DNA from: Psammoneis japonica
Lineage: Eukaryota
Reading direction: 5' to 3'
DNA: 64,000 nucleotides
Assembly (NCBI GenBank): GCA_008632985.1
Contig: QPGO01000005.1
Span: 765,607-829,606 of the forward strand
Part shown: positions 3,655-37,620 of the stretch, one piece after another
Layout of the letters: every line of letters begins with the position of its first letter
How positions within the stretch are numbered: position 1 is the first letter of the stretch
Notes under the pieces: model-generated
The model's input: only the letters and a program-made list of their open reading frames with translations
What the model was told of the DNA's origin: nothing
Databases searched by the model: none
Program-made: the position numbers and the translations under genes

Positions 3655-3945
3655 TGCCAAGTGGCGCCAAGTAATAGTGTAAAGTAGCGTTGTAAAGTTG
3701 ACTGTTGCTTATGTTGTGAGAAGAAATGAAAGAGATTCGGCTACTCCGAAATCTCGTAGAATTAATACTAAGAAACCGCGTAGAAATATAAAGAAACAAT
3801 CTTTCGAGAGGCATCGAGATGTATCGAGAAAGGAGAAGAGGTTTCTAGAAAGTGTCATCGTTGACATCCTTTTGACACTTTTGACACCAGGCTGACATCC
3901 ACGAATGAATGTACGAATGAATGTAGATGACCGTGATACTCGGCA
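3655..3945 (-). repeat. 3' LTR of element 1
   Basis: tgccaagt...actcggca (imperfect terminal inverted repeat), direct repeat of 8264-8554. Retains most TpA sites. Confidence 0.96.
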
Positions 3946-3956
3946 CTCGCTTCCCC
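3946..3956 (-). other. Polypurine tract of element 1
   Basis: Minus strand reads GGGGAAGCGAG immediately before the 3' LTR. Confidence 0.85.
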
Positions 3957-3966
3957 AATTGAGACG

Positions 3967-6900
3967 TTAGAAGACAGGGTGAAGACGGCGGATGTTGATA
4001 CGTTCAGTGACGTGAGGCGAGCGCTGGATGGTAACGGTTCCATTGGCATGGACACGTACGATGCGGCAAGGACCATCTTTGGTGTTGAGTTTGCGTTGGA
4101 TGTCTTTGGTCACAACGAAGACTTGATCGCCGATGTTGCAGTCGCAAGCAAGACGTTTTGCGTTTTCGCGGAGATTGTTGCGTAGGACATCGCGCTTGCG
4201 ACGGGCATTGATCATTTTCCAGTTCGCAAGACAAGCAGCAGAAATGACCATGTCTCGACCGAAGACAATTTGTCCGGGAGACGACACAAGGGCAGCATGG
4301 CAGGTGCTGCGCAAGGCCCATGCAACAGATTGCAAAATTCCATGAATTGTGTCTTCGTCATGATCGCGAGAAGGGAGATCCATCGCACGGAGAGAATCGG
4401 CTATCACTTGATGAATGCGTTCAACGAACGCGTTGGCTTGAGGATTCTTGATTGTTGCAGGTTTCGGTTTAACACCACAACTGTAGAGGAGATCTGTAAA
4501 CTCGGAAGTGAATTCGGAACCATTGTCATAAATGACAATTTCTGGTCGCGGATGGCGACAAAACCACTCGCGATCGACGACAAGTGAAATGTCTTCGGAC
4601 GTTTTGGACTTGCAGTTCGCGAGTTCGACCCAACGGGTTGCGACATCAACAATTGAAACGGCTCTGATTTTGCGATCGACACCATTCTTGTCGGCACACG
4701 TCCAGGGACCGAAAAGATCGACTTGAGTTGCCTGCCAAGGTTCACAAGCAGTGTCTGGAAGAGGCAATTCGCCACAGTTTGCCGCAGCACGCTTGGATTT
4801 GGAACACGTGCGGCACTTGCGGACAAAAGTGCGGACTTTCGTCTGCATGTCGCGAGTGTAAAAATGTGAAGCCAAAGTTTGGCAGGTGCGATTGGCACCA
4901 GGATGGCAGAGAGTTTCATGGCACCACCGTAGAACTGCAGGAAAAAGCGTTGGAGGGAGGACAATCTTGTCCTTGTAAAGGACAATCTGTTTTCCGTTGA
5001 GTGGTTCAGCTGAGTGGGATTCGGACTTGTCGAGTCGTTGCTGAAGAGCAGAATCTTTTTTCTGATGGTCGGCGACAATGTCGAAAGTAACGGGGAATGT
5101 CGAAGGATCGATTTCCAACGAAGTCATTTCCTCGTAATCGCTTTGATCGACTTGGACAACAGGATGGCGACTCAAAAAATCAGCCACGACATTCTTGTGG
5201 CCTGGCAGGTGCTCGAAAGAGCAGCCGCACTCCTCGAGAAGCAAACGCCAGCGTTTGACGCGTTCTGACTTGAATTTGTCAAATGCAAGATTTTTGTGAT
5301 CGGTGAACAGGTAGCATCGATGACCAAAAAGGATGCTTTTGAAATTTTCGGTCGTTTCCACGAGCGACAGCAGCTCTTTTTCCATTGTCGTGTGGTTTCG
5401 TTGCGCTTGAGACAATTTTCGGCTGTAGAGCGCAATTGGCCATTCGCCATCATCAAATTCTTGAGCAATCACTGCACCAAGTTGACAATCACTCGCATCC
5501 GGATAGATCTTGAAAGGTTGAGAGAAGTCGGGGAATCGGTGGAGGATTTCGCGCGCCACAATTTTTTTCATCTGATTGAAAGCTTCCGTGTGGACGTCAG
5601 TCCACTTGAATTTGACTTTGTCTGATGACAGCGCAGTCAAGGGCGTAAGAGTGTGGCTGCGTCGGCACCACAATTTCTTGCAACAATTCACGAACCCGAT
5701 GAAACCACGTAATTGTCGATGGTTTTGAGGGCGAGCGAAGCGAAGCAAGGGTGGGATTTTCTTTTTCTGAGGCTGAACACCTTTTGCAGTCATGGTGTAG
5801 CCCAAGTAGTCGACGGTCTTGGCGGCGAGATGGGATTCTTCGACATGTGCGTGAAGATTGTTCGTGAGGAGCCGTTGCAAGACGAGTTCGAGTCGTTGAC
5901 AGTGATGGTTGAAGTCGTTCTTGGCAAAGAGGATGACATTGTCGATGCAGACTATGACATCTTCCATGTCATGAAAAATGTCTGTCATGCAAGCTTGAAA
6001 AATGTCGCTTGCCGGTTTGATTCCTTGCGGCAGGCGGTTGCAGCAACACTTGCCCCACGGCAGGATGATGCCGCAGAGTTTTTTCGACTCGTCGTCAAGC
6101 ACGAAGTGACAGCAGCCTCGGTTGAGGTCCAAACATGTCGCACAGGTAAAGCCGTTCATTTTCCATACGACGTCGTCGACAACAGGCAGTGGATGTGGAT
6201 GCCGTTCGAGACACTCGTTGAGTTTCCGTAAATCGGATAAGAAACGGATGCCACCGCTCTTCTTCGATCGGAAAAGACAGGGTGCACCCCAGGGAGAGTG
6301 AAGTTTGCGCGTGGTGACATCGATTTTTTCCAATTCATCCACTTCTTTGCGAGCCATGGGATGTGACGCTTGCGGAATGGTGCAAGCTTTCGCACAGCAT
6401 GGACGCGATCCTGGTTTCAGGGTCAAATGGACGGGTTTGCCGGGCACAGCTCCAAGTGCACCATCAAACAATTGTGGGTGTCGTCCGAAGAGTTTGATGA
6501 GTTGGTGCTGTTGATCGTCATCAAGGTGTTTGCAGCGTAGAACCATGTCGCGACAATTGTGTTTGTCGTGCGCATTGCTCGTCACACCTCGAACCTGACA
6601 GTTGACGGCATTCTGGAAGAACTTGGGCAATTCAGCATCGCCGGGATGAATCGCGTTAACTTCGACTTGGTCGAAAGAGCCCTTGGATCGCATGGATAGG
6701 GTGACATCGTCCCACGTGATTGTTTGATGCCGAAAATCAAAAACGAGTCCCATTTCTGTGGCGGTTTTTCTTCCGATGACAACATCGTGTTTTCCCACGG
6801 CTTTGTCTTCCACACAAGCATCAACGGAAACCTTCTTGGACGATGCGAAGTCTGGGAACTTAAACGTGAGTGTCGCAATCTCGTGCAGATTAACGGCACT

Positions 6901-8190
6901 GTAACGGCCTTTAACGGGAACGTCACATTTACGGATTTTGTGAGGAATCCCGTGAAGGGCTGAGCGCTTCACAAAATTGCGATTTGCGCCGGTGTCGAGT
7001 AAAGCAACACGGAACTTGTGCATTCCAGAATGAGTGTCAATCATCTGGACACGCGCTTCCGTGGTAAGATTGTCTTCTACTTCGGATTCGATGGAATCGT
7101 CTAGAAGAGACGTGACGTCTTCAAAAATGTCGTTGACATCATCTGACGCGATGCCATCGACATCGTTAGAAGCGGAGCGACCAGCTTTGGAGTCCACATC
7201 ATTGTTTTCGACGTTCCGTGTGCGGCTCCGTGTAGGATGGCGGTGTGTCGGCTCGTTTCGAGAGTTATTTTGTTGATTCGGCGCATTCCGATTTGCGCGG
7301 TTCCGCTCATAATTTTCACGTTCACGACGGATGACATTGCACTCTTGACCGTTCGGATGTACAACGCCATGGATTGGACATGTTTGTCCACGATTGTTTT
7401 GGTTCCTGTTCCTGGCATCGCGATTTTGGTCGTCATTCTGGCCGCGACGCGTATTTCGACCGTTGTTGCGTTGACTCCGATTGTTGTTGCGTCTGTTGTT
7501 GTCGGTGGACCCTTTGTCACCACGTTGTTCCATGCGTCGGAGAGTCTCGTAGCATTGAGCTTGGTCGTTCAAGTTTAAGTTGCGAAGACGGGCTTTAGTC
7601 TGAGTTTCGGCCCATGATCTTGGTCCACATTTTCGAAGGATCATGGACAATTCCGCTTCCGTGAATGACGGAACTCTTTCGGCGTCATCTTCGGATGGCG
7701 CAGGCATGATGTTAATCAACTTGTTAAAGCAACGGATGTCATTGACAAATGACTTGACAGTTTGGTTCCTGGGTTTCTTAAGGCTTTGAAGCCATTCCTT
7801 GGTGTCAAGGGCAATTTCTCCATCCATGCATTGGAGTAGAAATTCTTCACGACAAGTGTCGAATGTAACTTGGTCGCGGTTTTCGCATTCGTTTACAATG
7901 ATTTCCCAGTCGTCTTTTGGTGTTCCGGTCATAAGTCTGGTCACGAGCCGGAAACGTGGCTGTCCTTCAGCCGCACCGAGATCGTCGACAAGTTCATCGA
8001 AGTTTGACCAGAAGGTAAGAACATCTTCCGGTTCAGTTGAAGCTAACTTGCGCACCTCGATCGCAGTTTTAAGCCCATCTGGATCGTCAGGATCAATGGG
8101 GCTTTCAAAAGACACGAATTGGTCTTTGCGTTGCTCTTCCTCAGAGCGGTCAGGATGCTTAAGTTCGAATGGGCAGTTTTCTGCTGACAT
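3967..8190 (-). pseudogene. Gag-Pol polyprotein, open (1407 aa) but probably inactive
   Basis: Gag CPIH-x-H-x-C knuckle, protease LLDTGA, RT (PWGAP, DLRKLN, LDLNRGCCH, RLPQG, CIDN in place of YIDD), RNase H (DASD, FTDHKNL) and integrase (HHCC, DLFG, DNGSEF, VER). Conserved Tyr residues are replaced by Cys/His and a catalytic RT Asp is Asn. Confidence 0.93.
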
Positions 8191-8263
8191 GTCTGGTCAG
8201 GACAATGTGATCGGCAGATGTGTCTCAAGAGAGATGAACAAATGTTTGGGAGTGAATTTGCCA

Positions 8264-8554
8264 TGCCAAGTGGCGCCAAGTGACAGTGTAAAGCAGCGTT
8301 GTAAAGTTGACTGTTGCTGACATTGTGAGAAGAAATGAAAGAGATTCGGCTGCTCCGAAATCTCGCAGAATTAATGCTGAGAAACCGCGCAGAAATGTAA
8401 AGAAACAATCTTTCGAGAGGCATCGAGATGCATCGAGAAAGGAGAAGAGGTTTCTAGAAAGTGTCATCGTTGACATCCTTTTGACACTTTTGACACCAGG
8501 CTGACATCCACGAATGAACACACGAATGAATGTAGATGACCGTGACACTCGGCA
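8264..8554 (-). repeat. 5' LTR of element 1
   Basis: Direct repeat of 3655-3945. Followed on the minus strand by TGGCAAATTCAC, a PBS-like sequence starting TGG (tRNA not identified). Confidence 0.96.
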
Positions 8555-8806
8555 GTGTTGTGTCATGACCGTTGCTAAATTTCTCAATCACTGTCATTTT
8601 GTGTAACTTGGTGGAATTAACACCATGATTTCGTATGTAGAAGATTGGTGGGAACTCGGCACTTTCAAAATTGTTGCTGATTCCTTCGCACACTTTACGG
8701 CAACCATGCAAAACGCAAAAAAACTGCCGCCGAGCGACGGACGAGCTCCGGAATTTCGAAATTCTTCATCTTCCATTCTGCATCCTGATCCTCGCCGAAC
8801 GATGAG

Positions 8807-11800
8807 ATGAGCGAGTCATCAAATGACAACCACAACAACGAAGGGCTGGACCGCTGCACTCCTGTGATTGATTGTCAGCGTCAATTGTTTCTGTGTGACA
8901 AATCCACAACAAAAACAAGCAAGCGTGTGGTTCGCGGTGAGCACGCAAAAGGATCCGGCGGAGCAATCTGTCGTCACAGTTCTCACTTGGGTTGGAAGGG
9001 GAAAGAATTGAAAACGAAGACAAGAGCAGTGGCTGGTGCCGCATCAACAACGTCCTTGTTCCAGAAGCTCCGCGACGACGTCAGCCGTTCCTGGGAGACG
9101 CAAGGTCACCCGTCCAAGCAAGTGGTGGATTTGGTTGTGTCTGTTGCCAATTCTTCAACTTCTGCTGCAGCCCAAAAGGCATGCCACATGCCCTTGTTGA
9201 AGGACAAACATCCTCGCGCAACCCCCGTTCAGAGCCCCCCACAAAGAAATCTGTCAAGTGGTTCAAGTCTCGGCAGTGCCAATTCTCTCTGTTTCCTGCT
9301 GTCAGTTGATTTCCAAGTGATGGAAGCCTTGGCCAAAGTGCCAAGGATCTGCCTGGGAGTGAGTCAGATCATGCCTCACATCTGTTTCCCAGCACAGGCA
9401 CCAGGCATGAAGCCACACTGAACACCATGGTCGACATGTGCATGGGGCTGAATCTTGGTCGACTCGCGCATCATGAGAGCATCCACAAAACTCACCCCGA
9501 GATCGTAGAGACCTTCGAGTTTGTCAAAGACATTGACAACCTTGAAGAATTCTCTGTTGGAGGAGCAGATGAGGATGGCAATGCCACTTGTGTCATTGCT
9601 GTCATTGTGTGCAAGACTCCTTTCAAAGTGAGTGGTCAAAATGTGTTGGTGTCATTTGGGCTGGCCAAGTCCGCAGCTGCCAATGCAATTTTGGGTTTGC
9701 CTTTTCTTTGGGCCACCAACAGCACTCTTTTCATGCATTGTGAGTCTGAAGAAACTTTGTTGTGCCAAAGGTCAGGTCACACCTTCCCAGCACACTGTCA
9801 GGTCCCACATCGAGCGGACCAAGCACCCTTGACAGGCGGCATGGGGTCTCAAGCGGCTCATGCGTTGTCACCGTTGGATGCAACGTGGAAACCCATTTCC
9901 GATGCTGCAGAGCGCCCCCAAGCCGAAGTCAAGGTCTCCATGGCGCCAGAAGCTAAGCAGCAGCTCAACATCAACCAAGGATGCATTGTTTTCAATGATT
10001 TGTTGGAATTCTTCATGTCTGCCCAGTGTGAAGATCCTGGCATTCCAAACCCCGAACACAATTTCATTCCTAAAGTTGAACAAGACGAATGAGAGTTGCT
10101 TTCTAGCCCAACCTTGGAGTCATCATTTTGCTTGTCAAGTCCTTGTGTGAGCATTGTGCTGGCGTTTCAAGGTCTCTTGTGGCGTCAAGCCAGTCTATGT
10201 GCATTCTTGATCGACTCTGCAAGAACATGTTGCGAGCCCTCTGTGTCATCTGTGTCTTCTACATTCAAGCCTTTATTTCCATCTAAACCGTCTCCAAGTT
10301 TACAAGGTGCTGTTTGCACCTCAAAGAAAATTTGGTGCCCGAAGCTCCCGTCGCATCATGTCAAACCCGACAATTGTCCAGATCCATTAGATGGCATGGA
10401 GGTCATCTTTAAAGAACACGGCTGTTCCCCAAGGAAGTCAGTTGCAGCTCTTCAGCCTCGCGATGATGTGTCATCCAATGGAACCCCAAGCCATGTCAAG
10501 CCGAGTTCAATCAAAACATCCGGTGGTTGGACTGTCCCGAAATTCACAAGCCAAGAATCACAGAAACAATCCACAAGCATTGGGATGCATTCTGTGAGGA
10601 AGGGCTGCAAAAACATGTTCGTGGTTTCTCATGTCGAGTTGACACAGGAGATGTTGTCCCGACATCTTGCAAACCACCCCGTTGTGGTCCGCACAAATCC
10701 AAGATCATGATGAAGCCACTCGACCATCTCAAAAACAACGGTTTGATTTCTCGCAATGATGAAAGTCCTTGGGGAGCTCTCATTGTCCCAGCAGCAAAGC
10801 CTTGCCAAGAAACAACACCCTGGCACCAGCACATTTGGTGCCTCTGTGCATCTTGCCGTTGACTGAACCAAGTGACTCGACCTTTCAACTTTCCAATTCC
10901 TTGTTGCGATGATGCCACACAAGATGTCCCGCCACAGGCAAAACATTTTCTCAGCTTCAACCTTGACTGCGGGCATTGGCAAGTGCAGTTGAAAAAGGCT
11001 TCACAAGCTGAGACAGTGTTCTTCACACCAGAAGGCAAGAGTCATTGGAACGTCATGCCAGTGGGGATCCTCAATGCGCGTGCTGTCTTCATGGCAATGA
11101 TGGCAGCTCTTCGAAAAGAGTGGAACCATGCATTTTTCAGACAGCATCCCGACTCAGACGAGAATGACGTTGGCACTCATGTTGTGGTCTGACCATGTGG
11201 TTCTGAGGTCATCGTCGACGATGTCATGTGTCATGCCACCTTGACTGATTTGTTGTTTCAACATTTTGAAGAAGTCCTTCAAATTCTTCTTCATCATTGC
11301 ATCACCATAAAACTCAAGAAGTGCAAGTGGTTGTCTCCATTCATGGAATTTGTTGGGGTTGACGTCCACCGTGACGGAAATTCTCTGGCCCATTCTAAAT
11401 TGGATGCATTCTGCACTCTCCCACCACCCGAGACATGGGGAGACTTGTGCATGTTGATTGGCACCTTTGGTTTTTGTCAAAGTTGGATTGAACGGTTTGA
11501 GGCAAGATTGATTCCGTTCAGACGCCTTCAAGTCCAACAACCGCAACCAGATGCTGTGGATCTAGAAGCAGAACAAGCCTTCTTTGCCAGATTCTGGCTC
11601 CCCGAACATCAAGAATTGTTTGACCAGCTGAAGCAAGACATTTTGTCGGGTTTGGTTTTGGTGCGCCCGGGCTGCAACCGTCAGTTCTACGTTGAGACCA
11701 ACTGGAGCAAAGATGTTGTTGGAGCTGCCCTGCTTCAAGCTGATCCCAATGATCTCACAGCCAAAGAAGCTGAACTCACTGAAGTCCAGGGTGGTCCATG

Positions 11801-14302
11801 CTTTTTCGATTTGCAATGTTTCTCGACGTGTGGTCTCCCGGTGATGTCCCTGACCAAGAAGGCAACACGAAGTTCCTCACACACCTGGACTGCATCACTT
11901 CTTTTGCTGTGGCAGATTTTTTGTCTTCCACAGTCAATTCGGAGTCCGTCGGCCAAGTTGTCATGAGCAAGTTTTCATCGTGTGTGGCCTGTCATGGCTG
12001 ACTGTTGTCGATGCTGACTTGCTGTTTGCTGGAGTGTTCAAACGTCTGTTTCAACTGCTGCGAGTGCTGGTCAAACCCGTGTCACGCGAAAACCACCGTG
12101 CTGTCCGCAACGAGCATTTTCACTGCTGTCTCCACAAGACAGAGAGAATCAACTTGGCAGATGCAAGTCAGTTGACACTTTGGAAGCTCGGCGTTCTTTT
12201 CACTGTGTGTGCATGGAACGTGTCTCCTGTTGACACTGCTGACATCCCAAGGTTGCCAGCAGCTGTTGGACGTGAGTTTCCTTTTCCTTTGGACATTCAA
12301 GCTCAACCGATTCATGACTCAGCCTCAGTGCCACAACATGCTCTCAAGCATTTTGAATTGACTGCTCCATTGCTGTTCAAGCAGCATGAGTTGTTGAACA
12401 CATTGAATGATGAGCGGCGTCACAGGCACATTGAACTAAAAAATGAATGCCGAGCATGCCGCGAGTTCAATCCAGGAGATGTGGTGTGTGTACGAAAACA
12501 AGTCAAGTCGGACAAGTCACAAGACATCTCCGCCAAGCTGTCATTTTGCACTGAGGGTCCATGCAGAGTGCTTGAAAAGGTCTCCCCTGTTTCTTGCAAG
12601 ATGCAAAAGCTGCCCTTTGTCCAAGGATTGGGTCGCCCCAGACGGTTTCACAAAGAGAATGTCACGCGAATGATGCTGTTGCCATCCACAATGATTTTTC
12701 ATAAGACAGCTGACGGTGCTGACACTCGTTTTTTGCATTTCCACTCTGAGATGGCCGGTTCTCCTTTAGAAAAGTGGCTGGGAAATGTCCCACGCGGTGG
12801 CTGCTCCAAGGCCGATGCAGGAGAAGACTTTGCATTTGAACCTTTGCAAAGCATTTGGTCCGACAAGCCTCCAGTTGAAACCAATTCCTCGGGTTCAGAC
12901 TCTCAAAATCAAGCCCAAGAGTTGGAGACAGTTGACGACCCAGACAGTGACTCAGACGAGGAAGGCTCTGCAACCAACGCAGCGCCTCTCCCTGCTCTGG
13001 TCCCCGGCACAGTTCATCCAAGAACCAAGCAGTTTTTTGCCAAGTTGCACAAGTCCATGTCCAACTCGACTGCCAAGATGTTTTTTGTTGCCTGTCATCC
13101 CCAAGCTCAAGTGACTCCCATGCTCGGCACAGGCACAAGCAGATTGGCCCGAGTCCAATCATTGTCACGCTGCTGCTCAAGGTGTGTGTGACGTGCGTTG
13201 GTGGGTGCAGCAGCACTCAGATCAGAGTTCAAGGTCGTCAGTTAACAGCAGGTTCTGGCTGGACGTTCACAAGATCTGCACCAATGGTCGAGACCCAGAG
13301 CCTTTCCCAGTTAGACCTCAGAAAGTGGATGAAATTTTAGCAGCAAATGACACTCTCGTTTGGCCATCTGCCCCTTTCCCTTTGGCTGAGCATTTCGTGG
13401 TGGGACCATTTGATTTGTGCAAGGCGCATGTGGGACTTCAAGTCCCAAAGCGTCAGGCAGTCTCTGAAGCCTGCCACATTGACAATGTTCATTGGACGAG
13501 GCTCGAACAAGAAGCCCCAAAATTTTGACTCGACGCATCGCATGTTCGACACACCCCGGATTTGTTGCCGGATCGGCAAATGCATTCAGTGCATTGCATT
13601 CATTTTCTTTTCAGTCCAACATTTTGCACTCCATTCCAAGTGTCAGTTTAGGCACTTTGTATCCAGTCTATGACCAAGGAGTTATCGGCTCAGGAGTTGA
13701 TGCCCCAAGTTCGAGCTCTGACAGCTGGAATTGTCTGCCAGGCGTGAGACGAGAGTTTGACTCATCCAAGCCATCGCGGGACTCTAGATCCCTTGCACAC
13801 TGGTTTGATTCCGACGCCATATGAGGGCTAGTGGAAAACGGTTGCAAGGATCCGGTGCTCTGTACAACGTAGCGTGGATGTGTCTGGTGTGGGGGTGTGC
13901 GGTGAGTGCGACGCCCTTCGAATGCGCGAAGTTTCAGACTCCATGCGTTGTGGAACCCTGAGGCATCTGATGTGGCTCTGCTAGTTATGACAGAGGTGAA
14001 GACCATGTGACAGGATAGCCCTAAAAAATTTTCTTGTCAAGAACATGGGAGGACGCAATCTGTCCTCTAACTTTTGTGCTGTGAGAGCCTGCTCTTTGGA
14101 AAGGGGGGTGTCGACAGCGTCCGTCAGTAGTCCGTGAGGACATGCGAAGCGAACTGAGTCGAGTTGATCGTGGATACGACGACGTGACACTCATCGTGTT
14201 CTCGCACAATCACAATCACTCGACATCAGTCTGGTGACAATCTTCCTTGTGTGCGGTACTACTCGTTTTCTTTATAACACAACGTTGTGGTTTTGACTGA
14301 CA
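8807..14302 (+). mobile_element. Older degenerate Ty3/Gypsy-like retrotransposon (different family)
   Basis: Frameshifted pol fragments: RT ('PWGALIV', 'LNQVTRPFNFPIP', 'NLDCGHWQV', 'WNVMPVG', 'VIVDDV'), RNase H ('FYVETNWSKDVVGAALLQA') and an integrase-like ORF at 11980-13191. PPT-like GGAAAGGGGGG at 14098-14108 precedes a putative TGTC...GACA LTR at 14109-14302. No matching 5' LTR was found and the left boundary is uncertain. Confidence 0.8.
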
Positions 14303-14668
14303 TCCATCCCAAAGCCTCAACCATGCTTCAATTGTGTCTTTTAGTTGAAGGCACTGCAGTGTAGAAAACAGAATACAGAGATTCCCGAAGGGTTCTCCCA
14401 TTCGTACAAGTACAAAGCAAAAAGCAATGCACGAGATTCTCAAACATGCCCTTGTTGTCGTCCTTCTCACTCCGTATGGCTCGCTTCGCCGAGACGACGA
14501 TATTCCCTGGTCCGCTCCCGCTATTATATGGCATGTATGCGTGAACATCGAATAACAGTGCACGCATCTGACACGCCCTCGCTCCACGCACGTCTAACTC
14601 GGAAAAGGGAAAAGTCTCATCCGCATCCGCTCACTTTTTCAACTTGAACAACGCCATTTCGAGAAAAT

Positions 14669-15800
14669 ATGGGTGTCTCTAAACATGGCGAGGATTTTGC
14701 AAAAGAAAAGGATCCGTCGATCACCGTAGCGGGAAGAGAAATAGCTGAGGATGGAGGCCATCGGAAACCCACTAGTGAGTATGTGCTCAACGTAGCCTTC
14801 GTCTCGTTCCTCGGTTTCACAGTCGTTCAAACAATCTTTGCGCTGAGAGCAAAGAGTGAGGTGAGTGAGCCATTTCATCTAGTATTTTGTTCCCTTTTAC
14901 TCGTGTGTATTGCTCACTCGTTGTCTTCTCCACGTTTTTCTCAAAGGCAATGTTAGCGGACTCGGAGGCGATGTTTGTTGATGCGCTTACCTATCTCTTT
15001 AATCTTTGGGCAGAAAGACTCAAAAATAGACCGTACACTGCTGAAGAAGTAGCATTATCTCACAATGAGCGTCACCGACGGTGGAAGTTGAAAAGGCTGT
15101 ACTTGGAGCTTATTCCTCCATTTATCAGTATCTCTAAGCTTGTTGTTGTAACAGTTCAAGCTCTACAAGAATCATTAGGAACTTTTCTGCGTACAATAAT
15201 GCTGATGACAACGCGTCTCCTGCCTTGAATGTCATGTTGTTCTTTTCGGGCTAGAATCTGCTTTTGGATGTTGTCAATGTGCCGTGCTTTACCAAAGCAG
15301 ACCATGCTGTTTGACTCCCAATAAACCATGAAGACATGCAGCTGTTGCATCACGGAATAACACAAGCATTCAAATCTTCGATCAGACGCGAAGAAGGTAT
15401 GAAAGTTTCAGCAAAGAACTCCATTCCATCATACCAGGCCATTGATGATACTTCAGACCGCGTTCACGATGACGAGGGTACTTCATTGGTAACAGAAACA
15501 TCCGGTGAGCACGCCTCAGACAGTGATAGTCTCAGTTCTGACGGTGACTTTATTGGCGTCGTCAATTTGAACATGAATATGTGCTCTGCCTGGACGCATG
15601 TTTGCGCAGATACTCTTCGAAGCATTGCGGTGTTTATAGCCGCAGCTAGTTCATAGGGTATCAGCGGAAGCTGCAGATGCTGTTGCGGCAATCATTGTCT
15701 CCTTTATCATTATTTCTAGCCTCACACCCCTGATTCAGGCAGGGGCTTTTCCTTACCGCCTTTGAAATCATAAAGATGAAAAGAGAAGACCGTTTACATC
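14669..15800 (+). pseudogene. Cation diffusion facilitator (CDF/ZnT-like) transporter, disrupted
   Basis: Exon 1 at 14669-14860, GT-AG intron at 14861-14946. Motifs 'AMLADSEAMFVDALTY', 'NMCSAWTHVCADTLRS' and 'ADAVAAIIVS'. Frameshifts near 15190 and 15655 plus in-frame stops. The 3' end is approximate. Confidence 0.75.
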
Positions 15801-16350
15801 AACCATCCTCCCGTTTGGGATGGACGATATCAGTCTAAGAGTCGCAACGGAGTTCGTTGTCTGGTCTTGGCTTGAGTATCAAGGCGAGGATTTCAGTTGA
15901 CGACGAGAGATGAGAAAGGTGGGGCGGAGGTAGCGATGTAATTTTAAGCACGAATAGACTAGGGTCTATGGATAAGATGGCGACTACTGGAAGGTTCTTT
16001 CTGAAACTCGAAGACCGTTATTCGAACCCGTACTTCTAGCGGTACTCAACACGTTCACAATGGGTTTGTACATCGCCCACGACGGTGAAACCACGCTAGT
16101 GGCAAGAAAAGGGAAGTGATACCACCAACAAGAATCGTACTATGATACTGACAACATCATCGTGGGAACTGTTCTCGGAAGCAAGAAGCGTCGGTAGGAA
16201 CCTTTGCTTCTTCTGCTTCTTTGCATAAAGCCACGGAAGGGTGTTGATTTTATACAGCATGGACCCAATGCCCATCCTACTTTGAGCCCCCAATTACATC
16301 GAGGGCGCAGGAATGTAAGCGGCTTGTGCTTGACAACATTAGGTCTTAAC

Positions 16351-25800: not shown

Positions 25801-26130
25801 TGCTGTTGTTGGGATGGTTGGTTGCATCAGGGTGTTCTTTCACTGTGAAGTTGTTGGGGGTCTCAGCTCTCACCACTCTCACCATGGCATGGATTGAGTG
25901 ACTGGGGAGTGCAGGTGCACCAGATGAGCCCTTCAACACCCACCCCTCATTCTCAAAAGGGAGACCTTCAATGCTCTCAGCTTGCAGTTGGTTGGTTGGT
26001 TGGTTTGGTTGTGTTGGGGTGCTCTTTTGCTGGTGGCTTTGTCTTGTGCAGCTGCACTGGGCAAGTCTTGCCACTCTCAATCACTGTTCTTGAGTGTTCC
26101 CTGGCTTTCCATTGGGATCTTCAATGCCCT
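22834..26130. repeat. Diverged tandem array, ~190-bp unit, about 17 copies
   Basis: Recurrent 'ggctgcaactgcaccagatggg', 'ccttcaatgccctcagcatgcagttgttgg' and 'gcatcagggtgttctttcactgtggatt' at roughly 170-205 bp spacing. TpA and CpG are both nearly absent. Confidence 0.9.
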
Positions 26131-29100: not shown

Positions 29101-29854
29101 TGTGTCACAGGAGTGACAAAGCAAGATGGTGGGAGCATGACATCATGCAGCAAGTTGGGTTGAGGAGGGCAGGACAAAGAACATCAGATGCACCAACAAG
29201 TTGGAGTTGGCTGCTTTGGCATGCTTTGCAGCTGCCATGAGTCCTGTGGTGGTGGGGTTGTTTGATGTGCAAACAAGCAAGTGTGTGGGAAATTGAGCCA
29301 ACTCCAGTGTCAGCAGGCAGGGACTCAAGTTCTGTTGTGACTCCCATGGAGGGATGTCATGCAATGGATTGAGCTCCAGCAGCTGGCAAGAAATTGACAG
29401 GGTCCATGTTGATGGAGGTGGTCAATGAAAGTGTGTGGCCACATTGCAAACTCACAATCTTCAACAGAGTGCTTGCGGTGGGAGGAGAGCACATGAAAAT
29501 GGTTCTGCAGGAGTTGAGGAGCATGGCATCTGTGCCAGAGGCATTCTGGGATGCATGCAAAGAGGCACTCAGGGAAAAACTCAATGAAGGCAAACTTGTC
29601 CAAGGAGGCACACAGAAGAAGCACAAGAGAGAGAGAGGATGAATGGTCTGCACCAACGGGAGAGGACCTGCCCTTGCAGCCAGTGGCTGCCAGCAATGGC
29701 ACAGAAACAGCTGCAGCCATGGCAACAAACCAAGCTGGTGTGTGAATGTAAAATGCAGCAAATGGCAAAATCTGGAACATGGCAAAAACAAAGAGGCAAG
29801 GTGCAAGGCAATGGACTGTGGAGATTTGAAAAAATGGTCGCACTCGGCCTGTCC
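26130..29854. mobile_element. Unclassified, heavily mutated repeat/transposon relic
   Basis: Near absence of TpA and CpG, no intact gene. Ends in a ~36-45 bp sequence that recurs inverted at 31631-31675. Confidence 0.5.
26519..26545. repeat. (AG)13 microsatellite
   Basis: Perfect AG dinucleotide run. Confidence 0.95.
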
Positions 29855-30169
29855 TTCCATGCGTTCACAAAACTTGTGTAGGATTCTACGTACGTAATAT
29901 TACGTGGGGCGATACTGAAATGGCAGTCGCACCAATCAGGCCTCATTCAAATATGCGTGAGGCCAACGCAAAGCAAACGGCACTTTCACGATGATGATGA
30001 TGCGGCGGCGGCGTCTTCAGTACGTTCCCGTAGCCATACCACAGTATATGCTTCTAGATGTGACAATGTGTTGGAAAGTTTGAAAGAGATCTGTCTCATT
30101 GGTGGCGTCTCTGACGGTGTTGTTTTCAACATAAATTTATGGACTGGACTATATATTATGGCAGGGCTG

Positions 30170-31370
30170 AATGTGGTAGCACTGGCGGCGGCAGGAGCCT
30201 TTTACTGCTTTTGCACTGGGGGTGGCTGGAGCCTGTGTACTACTGTCCTTTTTATCTGGTGGCGGTTGGTACCCCTGTATGATGCTGGTGCTGGTGGTGG
30301 TTGGAGCTTTTTTGCTGCTAGCCAGTGGTTGCAGTGGGAGCCTGTATATCGCTACCACTGTAGCACTGGTGGCGGTGGGATCCTGTGTACTACTGGTACT
30401 GGAGGCGGTTGGAGCCTTTTGCTGCTAGAACTGGCGGCAGTAGTAGCCTGTGTGCTGCTGCACTGGTGGCGGTGTGAGCCTGTATCCGGCGGTTGGAGCC
30501 TGTGTACTGGTAACCATCGAGGCGTTTGGAGCCTTATTATGTGATGTCGGTGGGTGCCCCTGTATGCTGTTGGGACTGGTGGTGGTTGGAGCTTTTTTGA
30601 TACTAGCCAGTGGTTGCAGTGGGAGCCTGTATATCAAGGCTAGCACTGGTGGCGGTGTGATCCTGTATACTGCTGGCACTGGAGGCGGTTGGAGCCTTTT
30701 GCTACTAGCACTGGCGGCAGTAGTAGCCTGTGTGCTGCTGCTGTAGCACTGGTGGCGGTGTGAGCCTGTATCCTGTATATTTGCTAGCATTAGTGGCGGT
30801 TGGAGCCTGTGCACAACCATCTTTTTTATCTGGTGGCGGTTGGTACCCCCGTATGATACTGGCACTGGTGGCAGCGGGAGGCTGCATCCTGTATAGCTAC
30901 TAGCACTGGCGGCGGTTGGAGCCTGTGCACTACTATCCTTTCTATCTGGTGGCGGTGGGTGCCCCTGTATGATGCTGGCACTGGTGGTAGTGGGAGGCTG
31001 TACCCTGCACAGCTGCTAGCGCTTGCGGCGGTTGGAGCCTGTGCACCACTATCCTTTTTATCTGGTGGCGGTGGGTGCCACTAGCATTCGAGGCGGTTGG
31101 ATTCTTTTTATCTGGTGTTGATGGTGCCCCTGTATGCTGCTGGCAGTGGTGGTGATTGGAGGTGTTTTGCTGCTAGCAGTGGTGGCAGTGGGAGCCTGTG
31201 TACTACTGGCAGTGGTGGCGGTGGGAGCCTGTGTATAACTACTAGCAGTGGTGACGGTGGGCGCCTGTGTGCTAGTGGCACTGGAGGCGGTTGGAGCCTT
31301 TTGCTGCGGGTGCTGGTGGCAGTGGGAGCCTGTGTACTGCTAGCAGTGGCAGTGGTTGGAGCCCATGTAA
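30170..31370. repeat. GC-rich minisatellite, ~30-33 bp unit
   Basis: Repeated 'ggtggcggttggagcctgtgtactactagcact'-like units. The minus strand reads as broken TQAPTATSASS-like peptide repeats. Confidence 0.88.
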
Positions 31371-31630
31371 CACACCAACCGTCGGCGGCGGGATCTTGAG
31401 ATGACCGGTGACGACTCGTGGAGAGATTGCTTGGGGGTTTCAATGCAATTATGTGTTTAAAAAGCAGTGCTTTAGATTATTAACGTAGCTCTTAATGATG
31501 GTGATCTCTTGTCTATATATTCTTTTGATGATGTGGTGTAATAGTGTCTTCTTTTTAGCATCGCGGCCGATGATTCACCACACTAGCTACTTGCACCACG
31601 TCTGATTTTTCACCTCGGATGTATGGCGAC

Positions 31631-34600
31631 GGACGGACAGTGCGACCAATTTTTCCGAATCTCCATGGTCCATTGTCAGCAAAGAACAAATGGCAGTTGC
31701 AACATTTGCTTTTTAAAAACAACAATGCAAAGAGACAAAATGCAGAGGACATTGCAGGCAAAGATGGTGGATTGCATGTGGCAAGAGATGAGATGAAGGA
31801 ATGAGGAACAGCAAATGTTAAAAAGGGTTGAGATTGAAATTGTGGGCAAGAACATTCACATTTCAAAGCAGGGCATGATTTAGAATCAAGAAGCTTGTAA
31901 ACTCAGTTGGCTTTGAACTGACATTTAAAGGAAGGAAGACCTGGCTCACAAGTTCACAATGATCTGGAGCTGCAATCAAGAAATGCCCACATTGTGGCAG
32001 GTGGTCAGACCCAGATTGTTGGCATCCCAGATGAAAGAAAGCAGCAGAAGAAAAGGGAGAGATGTCCTTGAGCGCAGCTTGCAATTGAGGCAACTGTTCA
32101 AGAAGGCATTTGTCTGGATGGACACAGCACAGAGCATGCACAACTTGAGCTCCATTTGCATTGTTCAGCACCTGTGCTTGGTTTGCATTTGGCCCATCAC
32201 TTCTTGCTGGTTGTGGCTTGGCAACAACAGAAACCAGCAGCAAACAAGAGAGATGCAGACCAAAAATCTCTGTGGAGGACGGGGCATTGATTTCTCTAAA
32301 TTTTCAAAGTGTGGTTGTCTGGCCAACCAGAAAGACAGTTCTGGCTGGGCACAATGCTCAAGAACATGAAAGCCAGAGCTGAGCAAGTTGGGTGCACTTA
32401 AAACATGCAATGTGAGCTGTGCTTTTGTGTGACAATGAACGAGCAATTGCACACAGGGCTGGGCTGGGATTTGACCTTGAGAAACTGCCTGCCCAAGAGG
32501 CACCAAGCCAGCGGGAAGCCACGCATGATTTGGGGAAGAGGGTTGACAATGCAAAGATTTTCTGACCACAATGGAACAAATGATCAAAGATGTGCCAGCC
32601 CATCTGACATCCAAAGAAGACACGACAACAACTCAGCTGCTGGGGGGGGCATCTGGCTGCTGCAGAGCATGAAACAGAAGAACAACAATGGCTGACAGAG
32701 TGCACCATGTGTGCCTGTGTCATGTTGCATGTGTGGCAGAATTTGATTGACCAGGTGCTCCACATTGGACAAGGAGTGAAGCCATGTTGTGGGCACTGGT
32801 TGAAGAGAACATCCTCTCAAAACAGCACTTTGACAAGACATCACCATGACAGTGGTCATCAACTGGCATGGTGACAGGCTGCTGCCTGACAACAAAAGTG
32901 GGAACAATGCTCCTGAAAAAATGTCAGTTTTTTTCAACCAACAAAGAAGCCATGCAGCCATCACTTGGCAACACCACCTGTGCCAATGACAGTGCACTCA
33001 AAAGCACTGCAAACTTGAGGCAAGGAGAGATGAGGTGCAATTTTCAAGAACTCTGTGCAAGTGCTTGACTCTGGCTGGGCAGAGTTGCAAGAGTCTTTGT
33101 GGAGCACAGCACACCTTTTCTGATTTTAGTCCCATGTTTGCATTTTTTGGGATGGTGACACAAGCACCACTTTGTTCAAACTGCATTTTTTAAGACATTG
33201 GTCCAACTCATGGGGTTGACAAGCAAAAATTCTTGTTCTTGGGGCTTCCATGTGATGCTGACTTGTTGGAAAGCCATCACCAAGCATCTGTTTGGTGGCA
33301 CATTTTTGATCTTGATGTGTGCCTTTCCATTGTCAGCCAAACTTGGCATTGAATCCTGGTGAGAGACAAACACGCAGCAGCAGCAGCAGCAAATGCAACT
33401 TGCCTCTCTGATGAAGTGTGAAAGTGCACCAAGTCTTGATGACAGCCACTCGAAGAGTGCTGGCTGAGATTTTTGTGGCTGTTTTTTTGCCAGTGTGGAA
33501 GATCTGAGCAAGCCAAGTTGGCCAAAGAAAAAAATGGCATTGACCTGTGTTGGTGCTGGGTCTGCTGAAAAGGGCAGAACATGTTGCTCTGTCTTCTGCT
33601 CCTTGTCAGCAAGTGCTTGTTGGTGTTTTGTGAGCCTTTTGAATGTGAGCCAAGGCATGCACACAAAGGCTCCTCATTGGTGGTTGCTGCAGTGCCAAAG
33701 GTTGCACAACAACAGACAGATGTCAGAAGATGACAAGTCATGCATCAAAATCACCACCAAACACCACACATGCGACCATGCATGAAACACCTGTCTGGCC
33801 ATCTCTCTGCAAGTTTCCACAGTTTGCACCCCCCCTCCCCAGCAGCAGCCTTGTTCATTGCCATGATGGAGCATGTTTTTGTGAAGGACCAGATGATTGT
33901 GGACATTTTCACCAAGCTGTTTGCAAATGATCAGTTTGCCAAAGTGTGTGTTGAGGAAATGTCATGGCCCACCTTGCTTGGGTTCAAGAGATCAAGAGAG
34001 TGCCAAGCACATGCATCTTGCCCTCTCCTCCTGGTGCCTTCTTCTCCACCCTCTTTGGCTCAAAACTTGAAGCAAGTCAAATCATGGCAAGCTGAAGAGC
34101 ACAAGGTTCCTGTTGGCAACTTTGCTTCTCTTCATTTCTCTTGTTTGCTTTCACCACAATCTCCAAACTGTGGCACACATTGCTCCACTGTGCTGCTCTT
34201 TTTCACCTGGCTGATGGCCTTTGTCATCTCCCTTGGGCTTTTGCGCATTTTTGCAAAAGCAAGTGTGCATGCCATTGTTTGCCTCTGCAAGCAAATGTCC
34301 ACTGCATGAGCTTGCACACATCCTGCACTTCTCCTGCCACCAGCATTGCAGCATTCTTGGTTGAGATTTTAGAGCGAAGTGTTGGGTGTTGCTGAGAGGA
34401 GAGCTGAAAATTGCAGCTTGTCATGTGCAGCAGAAGCACTGGTGAGCATTGGCTGCTTTTCAACTAGAGTGGCAACCCTTCCTGTTCTTCCAAGCATTGT
34501 CACTGCTCAGCTTTCAAAGCAACGATTGTGAGCACTGTCATTGTGGCTGTCCCACATGAGCTTGCAAAGCACCAGGCAAAACACAAATTGTGTTTTGTGA

Positions 34601-37600
34601 GAGAGAAGATGAGATGCACAACCAGCTGCCTTTAGAGCATGGAAGCAAGGAAGACAGCAATGACCTTGTTCCATCGACTTCCAATGCATTGGATGGGGTG
34701 GTGCAGCTCCAGATGATCAGAGCTTGAAGCAAGCATTGCTGGGCTGACAGCTGACATCCCAGAGGTTGTGTTGCTGTTGATGTTGTCAAGTGACTCAAAT
34801 GCAATGTGTCAGAGACAGAGTGCAGTGAACAGCTCAACATTTTGGGAATGCCTCTGCTGCATTGTGGTTTGAAAATTGCACTTTTTTGGCTTTCCTGCCA
34901 CCTTTCCTCCTGGCTTCACCTTGACACATGTTGTGTCAGAGTGCAAACCTCAGTCCTGAGCATCACTCAGAGGAAGCTCAGAACTTTGCACTCTTGGGCC
35001 ATTTGGCAGCGCAGCACTCCACAAGATGCTTTGGGTTGGCTGTGCTCTTTGTGGTCTGCAGAGTGGTGGTGCAATCTCAACAGGAGGAGCTGTCATGAGT
35101 GGGTCATGAGCAGAGTGTTTGTGACTTGTCTTGGGAGCACTGAGTGCCAAGCTTGTGTGGACAATGCTGTTTTTGGAGCAGCCCACCAGACACGCTTTTC
35201 CCAGACATCAACATGGTGGGACAACAGCTGTGCTTTCAAGTGACAGCAAGCCTTTGGAGCAAGGCTGTTGCTGCAGTCAAGTTGGTGCATTGAATTTGTT
35301 GAGTGTGCTGGCAACATTGTCCTTGAAGCAGCAACTTTCTCGCTGCTCTCCATCTGGGTTTGATGCATCTTGTCACAGCCATGTGAAAATTCTTGCTTTG
35401 AGTCCTTCTTCTTCTGCCACAATGACTGCAGTGTCCAAACACCAGCGGAGCTTGTCATGTGCGCACAAAGCATTGCCCCTTCATTGTGCCTGCTCTGCAT
35501 TTCAAGGATGAACAAGTGCGAATGGAGGGAACGTCAAAACAAGATTGTGTTTGTCAAATCCTCCTTGTCACTTTCACATGCCAGCTTGCCCAATCTGACA
35601 ACATGGTGTGGGAATGCCAGGTTGTTGAAAGGCCGCCAGATGGCCACCCCAGCCCTGCCAGTGAATTGCCAGAATGTGCACCAAGAACATTGGAGCCACA
35701 CTCTCCTTGTGTTCTGACTCCACATTTTCATTTTTTTGCAGCACATTTCCAATTTTCCATGCTGACATCAAAGCAAAGAGGGGTTGGTCCATTGACCTGC
35801 ATGGGCCTTGAGCAGAGTTTTCAAATCCTTGTCTCTTTTTCATGCTGGCTTGCACAATCTGATGATGCAGCACAGGAACACCCAGTTGTTGAAATGCCAC
35901 CAGAGGGCCAACCCCAGCCCTGCCAGCAAATTGCCAGATGCAATGGATTGCACACCAATGGTGTTCTTGGAGCTGTTGTCATTTGTGGTTGGACTCCATG
36001 ATCATGTCATTTTTCTGCTCAGCACATTTCCAATTTCCCCATCCAACATCAAAGTCGGGGGTTGGCCCATTGACCTCCATGGATCTTGAGCAGATGCAAG
36101 CTGAGTCTCATGCTGTCAACATCCCAGCCATGCCTTGCACACATTTTGTTCCAAAGAACACAAGTTGTGGGGCAGAACCAGCTTTTGCTTGAACCTTCTT
36201 GGCATGTGAACAAAGACTTGCTGCAGTGCAGCTTCAAGCCAGGTGATCTGCATTTCCATGATGTGAGAAACAAAGATGAAAGCAAGGTCAGCAAACAAAC
36301 CTTGGCAAGTCTTTGGTGTGAAGAAAAGCTTGCTGACATGCCTGGAGTTGGAATCAAAAAATGCTCCCATGCATTTGTGAGTTCCTGCTGGTGCACAAAA
36401 CAACAAGCAGCTGTGAGTCTCTGGTGGCAGCTCATGATCCTTGCAGATCTTTGCATGACAAGACCAGCCAGTGGCTTGAAGGAGCCCAGGGAAGTGTCTC
36501 AATGGAACAGGGTTGACTTGTTTTCCCCTCTTTTTCTCAACTGAAATGAGAGGGGCAACGTCCTCCTCTGCTGCTGGACTGTTGTCAGCAGCCACATCTA
36601 GAACATCCAGAGCATCAGGCTCCTCAGCTGCAGCTCCAAAAATTGCTTCCTCTTTTTCATGCACAGCCATTGCAGGATTGTTCATGGCATCAGCACAACA
36701 GGCTCAGCTGTGGGTTTGTCCACTGCAGCAGCAGGAACACCCGCCTCCATGCATCAACTGGTGCACTTTGCTCTTCCACAGCAAGCTCATTCAAGGCACC
36801 CCAAGGCTCTTCAATGTCATTGTTGGCTTCAGGAACTGCTTCCTCCACAGCAATTGGGTTGTTGTCCATGGCCTGAGCCAGCTCAACGGCCATTGCAGTT
36901 CACACCCAGCCGCCCCAGTGATCAAACTGAGGACCCGAGTCTCAGCAAACAGTGCTTTCTTCTTGCCCCAATTCAAATTCAAGCAGCACCACAGCCAACA
37001 ATTCATGATCATTTAAAAAGAGCATCACACGGGTGTGACAAGGGATTTGAGGAAAGAGCAGGTGTGCTGGTTGGAGTCGGAGCAGCATCGCCAATTGTGC
37101 AAGAAACAACAGCATCCACGGCAACGCAAATTTCACAGGAATGCTGTTGAAGCAGGGGAGCCAGTGCATGGTCCATGGAACCTCACAAACTTTAAGAGCA
37201 GCTGCAGCAGCATCACATGCTTGATTGTCAATGTCCGCAGCTCCTCAGCGGCACAAGAAACAACAAACATTGGCGCCAATCAACTTCAGTGAGGAGCACA
37301 TGAATGTCACATGTCACAGCATGCAAAGCACCAAGAAGGAAAACTTTTACAGACCACATGGACAAAGGTCACAAGAGCATGAATCATGTGGCGAGTCTTG
37401 GTCTTCACAGCAATGTGCACGCACCGCTGTGGGTCGCTGCTTCCCAAAGGAAGCCACGCTCATGATGCGGCTGTGGTTCTGCTTGCCATGAAACAGGCAC
37501 AGCAGGAGATTCACAAAGAGTGTGATTGGTGCAAAGTGTGCAACCATGATGGGGGTAACAGCATGAGCAAAGACAGATTGGCGACAGCGTGTGTTTCAAC

Positions 37601-37620
37601 GCAACAACACTTGAAATCGT
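31631..37620. mobile_element. Unclassified, heavily mutated repeat/transposon relic(s)
   Basis: About 6 kb with near absence of TpA and CpG and only spurious Cys/His/Gln-rich ORFs. Begins at the inverted copy of the 29809-29854 sequence. Confidence 0.5.

Follow-up and report, generated by a model that had tools for sequence, protein, structure and literature searches.

In a window of 64,000 nucleotides from the genome of Psammoneis japonica (assembly GCA_008632985.1, contig QPGO01000005.1, forward-strand positions 765,607 to 829,606), the dinucleotide TpA is nearly absent from five sharp-edged blocks of transposons and repeats and normal in the adjoining genes. The patterns described below indicate that the nuclear DNA of this organism, a diatom as judged from the closest relatives of its genes, undergoes a change of TpA to TpG or CpA (A:T to G:C) inside sharply bounded domains. 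That a DNA-level, TpA-specific hypermutation is real we regard as highly probable; that adenine deamination is the underlying chemistry has about an even chance, and the same even chance applies to the two statements taken jointly. The analysis follows up an earlier note on this DNA, which had proposed a genome-defence system that hypermutates repeats in this manner.

Depletion of TpA in sharply bounded blocks

The observed/expected ratio (O/E) of TpA was computed in 1-kb windows, and every TA position was mapped separately. Five blocks reach an O/E of 0.00-0.07, compared with 0.62 for genes. In the 1-kb profile, a Gypsy element at 4-9 kb has values of 0.15-0.31 and the genes at 38-62 kb have 0.46-0.79; the stretches at 9-13 kb and 23-30 kb lie at 0.03-0.13 and 0.04-0.15, and those at 32-37 kb and 62-64 kb at 0.00-0.05 and 0.04-0.06, respectively. 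The map of TA positions places the block edges at 3946-13649, 18491-19226, ~22463/22787-29749, 31926-~37200 and 62325-64000, and the longest gaps without a single TA measure 1966 bp (34633-36599), 1179 bp, 1084 bp and 1038 bp. Taken as one pool of 19,499 bp, the fully depleted blocks retain 52 TA (2.67 per kb) against about 765 expected at the O/E of the control DNA, which holds 42.4 TA per kb (1,203 TA counted). In this pool the O/E of TA is 0.05 at a GC content of 0.47-0.55, and the missing dinucleotide is mirrored by an excess of CA (O/E 1.79) and TG (O/E 1.71; control 1.15). The ratios of AA, AC, AG and AT are little changed, with AA at 1.23 versus 1.13 in the control and thus without a drop, and TC stands at 1.00 (control 1.14). 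The borders of the depletion are sharp, and the genes at 13.7-18.4 kb and 38-62 kb as well as an island at 29.85-31.9 kb are TA-normal; even genes located only 100-300 bp from depleted domains are unaffected. The near absence of TpA from the repeat blocks and its normal frequency in genes, as described in the earlier note, were thus confirmed, and the block coordinates given there agree with ours within a few hundred bases.

The blocks differ in their content. The fully depleted part of the first block is a decayed Gypsy element (8696-13649, plus strand) with Pfam-detected remnants of reverse transcriptase (RT), RNase H and SH3_Tf2-1 domains; it contains 22 TA in 4,954 bp at a CpG O/E of ~0.5-0.6. 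Block B (18491-19226) is free of TA as far as position 19164 and has a single one in the remainder. Block C (22830-29749) retains 18 TA in 6,920 bp at a CpG O/E of 0.06-0.26 and includes a satellite of ~187 nt at 23110-25443. Blocks B and C were probably once continuous, since the element at 19227-22829 that now separates them sits within older depleted DNA. Block D (31926-37200), which includes the longest TA-free gap, has 10 TA in 5,275 bp, and block E (62325-64000, plus strand), with an RT remnant at 63026-63958, has 2 TA in 1,676 bp and continues past the end of the window. No Pfam family was found among the 68 open reading frames (ORFs) of blocks C and D, part of a scan of 102, which gave sub-threshold chance matches only, and a blastx comparison of both blocks with Gypsy homologs returned no match.

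The CpG dinucleotide follows a course of its own. Its O/E is 0.06-0.26 at 23-37 kb and 1.19-1.41 at 4-8 kb, and values of 0.06-0.42 in blocks C, D and E indicate that CpG decay occurs there too. CpG decay is a separate and slower process, seen in blocks A2, C, D and E. The interior of the Gypsy element combines a CpG O/E of 1.22 with a TA O/E of 0.22, so that the loss of TpA is separable from that of CpG and faster; in these sequences TpA erasure outpaces CpG decay.

Contigs derived from the reads of the public run X1 were placed on the window, with a word depth of ~57-65 over unique DNA; summed word depth is not a copy number and serves only as a hint of many similar copies. One X1 contig of 4,832 nt, with a word depth of 57 as found for unique genes, spans positions 8979-13812 with 27 letter differences and 4 gaps. 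This contig reproduces the 4.8-kb TA-free block, which is therefore no artefact of the assembler.

The dense depletion also affects gene prediction. The blocks at 3946-13649 and 22830-37200 are crowded with long overlapping open frames on both strands, and 43 ORFs of at least 150 amino acids were counted in 3-38.5 kb. With TAA and TAG erased, TGA is the one stop codon left, which explains the long open frames and would cause gene callers to over-predict.

Changes after integration and on both strands

Two pairs of long terminal repeats (LTRs) provide a comparison of sequences with a common starting point. The first pair belongs to the Gypsy element at 3655-8554 (minus strand), which is flanked by the target-site duplication GTGTT (3650-3654 and 8555-8559, five identical bases). 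Its left LTR (3655-3945, TG...CA) has retained its TpA, with a normal number of TA per 200 bp, and the partner LTR (8264-8554) is mutated at TpA sites that are kept in the twin. The partly depleted interior (3946-8263) holds 59 TA (13.7 per kb) and specifies RVT_1, RNase H, Integrase_H2C2 (zinc-binding) and rve domains according to Pfam; its pol frame at 3967-8196 owes its openness solely to the erasure of TAA and TAG stops. Altogether, only about a third of the element's TpA is left. The second pair bounds a decayed AT-rich LTR element at 19227-22829 that is flanked by AGCC (19223-19226 and 22830-22833). Its left LTR (19227-19593) has retained TpA, the partner (22463-22829) is mutated at 25 positions relative to the twin, and the interior (19594-22462; TA O/E 0.56-0.90, GC 38-41%) contains a weak RNase H remnant only. 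As single insertions with flanking duplications, both elements must have carried identical LTRs when they were inserted.

The LTRs of the first pair now differ by 17 mismatches in 291 positions and those of the second by 25 in 367. Among these 42 mismatches, 36 are located at a TA of the left copy, four are TG opposite CA and two are neither. The TA-keeping LTRs contain 49 TpA, of which 13 are shared with the twin and the others are replaced by TG (17), CA (18) or GA (1), so that 35 of the 36 changed sites are transitions. No TpA is private to the mutated right copies, while their twins keep 36 extra TA, and the four sites with TG opposite CA imply that both copies have been struck. Each TpA site of the LTRs has been hit ~1.3 times on average, whereas the 560 positions outside TpA show 2-6 other mismatches, corresponding to a per-base excess at TpA of ~60- to 190-fold over the background divergence in the same LTRs.

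The action on either strand is evident from further sites. The reading frame of the Gypsy element contains both Cys codons (sense A to G) and His codons (sense T to C) in place of Tyr, and the satellite units of block C are polymorphic for TA, TG and CA at two homologous columns. These sequence comparisons show that the change arises in chromosomal DNA after integration and on either strand. Since LTRs bounded by target-site duplications differ, both strands are struck and a satellite is affected, editing of RNA before integration cannot produce these patterns. Two statements of the earlier note are borne out by these data, namely that the LTR pairs differ almost only by TA versus TG or CA and that both strands of chromosomal repeat DNA are struck.

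TpA as the lost state

The direction of the change was determined from conserved tyrosines, whose codons begin with TA. The pol frame of the Gypsy element was aligned with 60 of 120 listed Gypsy homologs, and a column was regarded as a conserved Tyr column when at least 70% of the residues were Tyr. The element has kept Tyr in 3 of 21 such columns, the remainder being Cys (12), His (5) and Trp (1), whereas columns conserved for any other residue were kept in 282 of 366 cases (Fisher p = 7e-9). In the pol frame as a whole, 0.92% of the residues are Tyr; the minimum in 123 fetched homologs is 2.87%, and no low-Tyr relative was found among these 123 Gypsy proteins. The older Gypsy relic at 8696-13649 has kept none of 10 conserved Tyr columns. 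Moreover, other copies of the family in X1 contigs aligned to 4113-8262 carry TA opposite TG or CA of the window in 14 of 28 rows and the reverse in 0 of 28, these rows being a sample (40 of 834 rows). TA is accordingly the ancestral state of the Gypsy element and has since been lost. The conversion of conserved retroelement Tyr into Cys or His had been noticed from the letters alone and was verified by the counts given above, and the direction deduced from it is upheld by the Tyr test, the family copies and the LTR pairs.

An extended sequence motif

Trinucleotides were counted with both strands combined and expressed relative to the control. In the depleted blocks, TAT is reduced to 1% of the control, TAC to 2%, TAG to 11% and TAA to 16%, and in the half-mutated Gypsy element the values are 12% for TAT, 28% for TAG, 32% for TAC and 63% for TAA. 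Of the 52 TA left in the blocks, 39 stand in YTAR (Y, pyrimidine; R, purine), compared with 181 of 1,203 in the control (p = 1e-20). These surviving sites comprise CTAA/TTAG (20), TTAA (14) and CTAG (5). In the LTRs, 18 RTAY sites are mutated and one is kept, and RTAR has become RCAR nine times and RTGR three times. Taken together, these counts show an extended motif: the A of 5'-TAY-3' is the first to be changed to G, an event that the opposite strand displays as T to C at 5'-RTA-3', and YTAR is resistant. The TAY/RTA motif with YTAR resistance is new in this analysis.

Targeting of domains

The distribution of the changes bears on how the process is directed. In each LTR pair one copy was spared and its twin, identical at insertion, was heavily mutated. 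The edge of the Gypsy domain coincides with the junction of LTR and interior (3946), and the element at 19227-22829 becomes poorer in TA only within its final 0.4-0.8 kb, on the side of block C. This element has by far the highest summed X1 depth of the 20 kb covered (5,000-21,000, with 5,000-12,000 over the interior, against ~60 for unique DNA) and is TA-normal except for one LTR, and the fully depleted block at 9-13.7 kb has an X1 depth like that of unique DNA. The island between blocks C and D (29850-31900, minus strand) was spared amid two erased blocks; its TA O/E is 1.41 at 30-31 kb and its GC content 54%, and it consists of 116-nt and 33-nt tandem repeats with minus-strand frames rich in Pro, Ser, Thr and Ala that are predicted to be mucin- or cell-wall-like. 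The earlier note had called the process repeat-targeted, which holds insofar as repeats and transposons are struck; a targeting of duplicates as in repeat-induced point mutation (RIP) did not stand, with an LTR twin spared, the element whose depth suggests that it is the most repeated one here TA-normal apart from one LTR, and a block of unique depth erased. The pattern fits domains defined by a chromatin mark or by small RNAs. By analogy with the chlorarachniophyte Bigelowiella natans, in which only some lines mutated, it would also fit an episodic activity.

As a separate observation, the depth of the element at 19227-22829 hints at a non-autonomous family of very high abundance in which TpA has until now been spared.

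A second case on metagenome contigs

A profile of the pol region retrieved 79 Gypsy loci from metagenome contigs. The median TA O/E of these loci is 0.74, and four of the 79 have values of 0.24-0.35 (threshold 0.35 or less) with CA and TG O/E values of 1.40-1.54. Conserved Tyr was kept in 1 of 17 columns of locus L009 (12 Cys, 3 His; other conserved residues kept in 249 of 294), 1 of 14 of L032 (9 Cys, 3 His; 192 of 236), 4 of 20 of L069 (4 Cys, 10 His; 263 of 310) and 3 of 12 of L061 (2 Cys, 6 His; 157 of 200). Several relatives are intermediate, for instance L010 with 8 of 21 Tyr kept. The depleted loci are 75-90% identical to one another at the DNA level and hence count as one family and one extra case, not nine; the family presumably comes from one kind of organism.

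Locus L009 was polarised against the majority of four less-mutated relatives. It has TG (44) or CA (29) at 73 of 103 columns with majority TA, and these account for 73 of the 78 changes at such columns; TA occurs at 4 of 274 columns with majority TG or CA. The motif recurs in the context of these sites, as all 15 RTAY were mutated and 20 of 32 YTAR were kept, YTAY having turned into YTGY (21) or YCAY (6) and RTAR into RCAR (13) or RTGR (9). Among the TA remaining, RTAY makes up 0 of 76 in L009 and 0 of 47 in L032, compared with 385 of 1,311 in five undepleted loci. A strand coordination of neighbouring mutated sites beyond that given by context was not significant in these two loci (p = 0.55 for L009 and p = 0.10 for L032). 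An unrelated Gypsy family on metagenome contigs thus carries the same signature and the same motif.

Another metagenome contig, L045, contains a TA-poor sub-domain at ~2000-3600 with 1-4 TA per 200 bp between flanks of at least 10 per 200 bp, and the edge of this sub-domain is as sharp as those of the blocks in the window.

Comparison with known systems

The statement of the earlier note that no described system has this signature is out of date. A preprint by Mettrop et al. (bioRxiv 10.64898/2026.01.13.699255) describes integrated viruses of B. natans that are hypermutated from TpA to TpG/CpA, and the same spectrum was measured there de novo. According to this source, 231 of 302 nuclear point mutations in mutation-accumulation lines fell into giant-virus and virophage regions; A to G or T to C changes made up 230 of the 231, every one of them at TpA. 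Mutations arose at ~6e-7 per site per generation, about 1,000 times the background, and were seen in Illumina data from 11 of 15 lines. The target DNA is silent integrated viral DNA, an enrichment for RT and DDE domains was noted among 324 coding sequences low in TpA, and an ADAT2-like enzyme that deaminates adenine in DNA is put forward by the authors. The main text mentions neither trinucleotide context nor diatoms nor retrotransposons.

As far as this source goes, the two cases share a spectrum of nearly exclusively A to G and T to C changes at TpA only and on both strands, foreign or selfish DNA with normal flanks as the target, a rate that is orders of magnitude above the background, and genomic clusters that are poor in TpA, rich in CpA and TpG and enriched for RT or DDE domains. 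They differ in the host, a rhizarian there and a diatom (stramenopile) here, and in the targets, which in B. natans are mainly single-copy integrated viruses with 3.3% TpA left, unlike the LTR retrotransposons, relics and satellite with near-zero TpA in the window. Furthermore, de novo rates were measured in B. natans, whereas the rate here is deduced from LTR divergence. The extensions beyond the preprint are the occurrence in diatoms, retrotransposons and satellites as targets, the near-total erasure, the motif and the behaviour of the domains. A full-text literature search, with most subscription journals outside its coverage, found no report of the signature in a diatom, the B. natans preprint being the sole match, and a term search of the mutation-accumulation paper on P. 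tricornutum (PMC6604790) returned no passage on transposons or hotspots.

The process resembles RIP in being a dinucleotide-specific hypermutation of transposons that acts after integration in the chromosome and on both strands, that ruins coding capacity and that can leak into adjoining DNA. In contrast, RIP changes C to T mainly at CpA and thereby creates TpA and AT-rich DNA, whereas the process in the window removes TpA and makes the DNA richer in GC; in RIP both partners of a duplicated pair are struck, whereas one LTR of a pair is spared here, and the RID-type enzymes of RIP are homologs of cytosine methyltransferases. The decay of 5-methylcytosine yields the same end products, TG and CA, and occurs in blocks C, D and E as well, but it cannot remove TpA. 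The earlier note had judged RIP, decay of 5-methylcytosine, one-stranded RNA editing and the WA pattern (W, A or T) of polymerase eta to be ill-fitting, and this judgement proved sound in view of the loss of TA, the CpG O/E of 1.22 in the Gypsy interior, the differing LTR twins and the retained AA.

Candidate mechanisms

In the proposed mechanism, adenine in DNA would be deaminated enzymatically to hypoxanthine, which the following round of replication would treat as G. The actor may be a deaminase, TadA/ADAT-like or of another type, and it would be guided to silenced chromatin or small-RNA-marked DNA and not to sequence duplicates. The net effect would be the wrecking of transposon frames, with Tyr converted into Cys or His and stop codons erased. 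Bacterial TadA has its natural target in the U-A-C of the anticodon loop of tRNA-Arg, which would fit TAY. By analogy with B. natans, for which there is a precedent proposal, adenine deamination would be the simplest route. Stramenopile-restricted deaminase-SAM-Tudor proteins, described by Iyer et al. 2011 (PMC3239186), are a lead and not evidence.

Several points weigh against this proposal. The pattern can equally be read as an attack on A (TAY) or on T (RTA), which is one event seen from two strands. Processive deaminases of single-stranded DNA often leave long single-strand tracts, and no sign of such tracts is apparent in the sequences. Eukaryotic ADAT2/3 and ADAR favour other 3' neighbours. 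No deaminase, TET/JBP or polymerase domain was detected with Pfam in the ~170 ORFs of the window that were scanned, in line with the earlier expectation that the enzyme is not encoded in this stretch. The polarity of the LTR pair at 19227-19593 and 22463-22829 rests on the hierarchy of contexts and the match to the composition of the interior, and the confirming run X1 may be the source data of the assembly itself. As for the A:T to G:C mutator that had been postulated, its direction, its action on both strands and its action on the chromosome stand; deaminase chemistry and a role in defence, by which the process would be adaptive, are what we infer.

An attack on thymine is, in our estimation, an unlikely alternative to adenine deamination. 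A TET/JBP-type dioxygenase would oxidise the T of 5'-RTA-3' to 5-hydroxymethyluracil (5hmU) or 5-formyluracil, and mispairing or misrepair would then change T to C, so that a transposon-marking modification would be primary and the mutation a by-product. The motif is equally readable in this sense, and 5-formyluracil mispairs with G. To our knowledge, however modified, 5hmU still forms its pair with A, and a near-complete change of T to C is not known to result from it; we know of no report of 5hmU in diatoms, for which no search was made. A study on dinoflagellates (PMC11572971) describes a TET/JBP enzyme that makes 5hmU silencing transposons, with a preference for the T in TA and TC. This system resembles the one considered here in belonging to the lineage of stramenopiles, alveolates and rhizarians, in its TA preference and in its tie to transposon silencing. 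It differs in being a base modification and not a fixed mutation, and the TC targeted there is not depleted in the blocks (O/E 1.00 versus 1.14). In addition, the scanned ORFs of the window lack a TET/JBP domain.

Less likely still is an origin without any dedicated editor, by error-prone patch repair or translesion synthesis with polymerase-eta-like insertion of G opposite T, or by an unrepaired lesion in heterochromatin. Such an origin would agree with an effect that is bounded by domains and not by element ends, that spares one LTR and that dwindles across 0.4-0.8 kb of the element at 19227-22829 like an effect of chromatin state. Polymerase eta favours WA sites and strikes AA as well as TA, whereas AA is undepleted here (1.23 versus 1.13). 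The reduction of TAY to 1-2% of the control, together with two other mismatches in 658 LTR positions, amounts to the 60- to 190-fold per-base excess noted above, which is far above known chromatin effects. The process of B. natans, on in some lines and off in others, suggests a regulated activity as well (10.64898/2026.01.13.699255).

A sequencing, base-calling or assembly artefact at modified bases of heterochromatin is very improbable. The blocks are the kind of DNA that carries modifications, and the possible identity of run X1 with the data of the assembly is in favour of this view; we know of no common base modification, however, that a polymerase reads as a transition. The raw-read contig at a word depth of 57 yields the same TA-free block, other family copies from the same run carry TA, and signature and motif are found on contigs of unrelated metagenome assemblies. 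The signature is also seen in the Illumina mutation-accumulation lines of B. natans, according to the preprint (10.64898/2026.01.13.699255).

ADAR-like A-to-I editing of transposon RNA, fixed by reverse transcription, is hardly credible. ADARs favour a 5' U and hypermutate the RNA of repeats (10.64898/2026.01.13.699255), and ADAR and APOBEC enzymes leave deaminase-made clusters of transitions in selfish elements. Both act, however, on RNA or pre-integration cDNA and on one strand, so that both LTRs inherit the change, and APOBEC enzymes cause C to T or G to A. Instead of being identical, the LTRs of insertions with target-site duplications are told apart by 36 TpA sites, a single element contains both A to G and T to C changes of the sense strand, a satellite is affected and domain edges cut through elements. 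RNA editing is thus refuted for the LTR differences and could make a minor extra contribution at most.

The reverse polarity would make the TA-poor copies the original ones and TA the product of a RIP-like change of C to T at CpA/TpG. This reading draws on the AT-rich surroundings (GC 38-41%) of the TA-rich side of the outgroup-free pair at 19227-19593 and 22463-22829, yet it is equally far-fetched and refuted wherever polarity was tested, since the Tyr test makes TA ancestral in the Gypsy element, L009 and L032, the family majority of L009 agrees, a TA O/E of 0.00-0.07 is implausible as an ancestral state and the TA shared by LTR pairs stand in resistant contexts as predicted by a loss of TA.

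Host genes and further features of the window

The genes of the window are closest to diatom genes, and on this basis the host is taken to be a diatom. An exon of the alanine aminotransferase gene (38705-40065, minus strand), which comes with an EF-hand exon, gave matches that were all from diatoms where an organism name was displayed, namely Thalassiosira oceanica (67%), Cylindrotheca, Nitzschia, Bacillariaceae and Corethron; the best nameless matches reached 74%. Named Gypsy matches are from Mayamaea and Fistulifera, and protein clusters with the helicase-associated domain (HA, PF03457) are commonest in Bacillariophyta in the Atlas. Besides the alanine aminotransferase gene, the host genes with normal TpA encode, in coordinate order, a cytochrome P450 (48357-49268, minus strand), a class IV aminotransferase (51485-52840, minus strand), a sulfotransferase (52881-53741, minus strand), an SPX-cytidylyltransferase (55213-56553, plus strand) and a metallophosphatase with a laminin-G-like domain (58141-60417, plus strand).

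A second run, X2, looks RNA-derived although it is listed as 'DNA?'. Its depth is 100-170 over the genes at 13.7-18.3 kb, and its contigs skip 86 nt (GT..AG) at 14858-14945 and 77 nt (CT..AC, a minus-strand intron) at 17422-17500. These joints place introns in the genes at 14.2-15.9 kb and 16.4-18.2 kb; the region 16617-18163 (minus strand) specifies a two-exon protein with HA repeats. The run is nearly absent over the transposon blocks at 4.3-13.7 kb and 18.3-23 kb, an absence of cover that is no evidence.

At the left end of the window, positions 1-1000 exhibit a mild form of the block signature (TG O/E 1.56, CA 1.45, TA 0.51), and an ORF at 728-2641 (plus strand, 638 amino acids) is without a Pfam family. 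The region 3001-3654 upstream of the Gypsy insertion has a summed depth of ~4,500 in run X1 and 181 in the RNA-like run X2, with only one TA in 3401-3600, and is possibly another, expressed, repeat.

Biological significance

As a tentative proposal, to which we give somewhat less than an even chance, an old defence that is guided by chromatin or small RNAs and has a 5'-TAY-3' DNA adenine deaminase as its effector may be common to diatoms, chlorarachniophytes and at least one other microbial eukaryote from the environment. If this is true, the system would clear silenced transposons, satellites and integrated viruses of TpA more quickly than methylated CpG is lost. It would amount to fungal RIP mirrored in the direction of GC and to a naturally occurring editor of A to G in DNA. 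The phenomenon of one rhizarian preprint of 2026 is extended here to diatoms, which are major and genetically tractable primary producers, and to LTR retrotransposons and satellite DNA as targets beyond integrated viruses. The hunt for the enzyme thereby becomes a matter of comparative genomics, in which signature-bearing species can be compared for their deaminase, dioxygenase and polymerase genes, and the TAY/RTA motif with YTAR resistance provides a handle that is testable in vitro. A natural A:T to G:C enzyme acting on double-stranded chromosomal DNA would bear on GC evolution, transposon dating and gene calling and would be of interest for genome editing. In genomes of this kind, the dating of retrotransposons by LTR divergence would be badly wrong unless TpA sites are masked.

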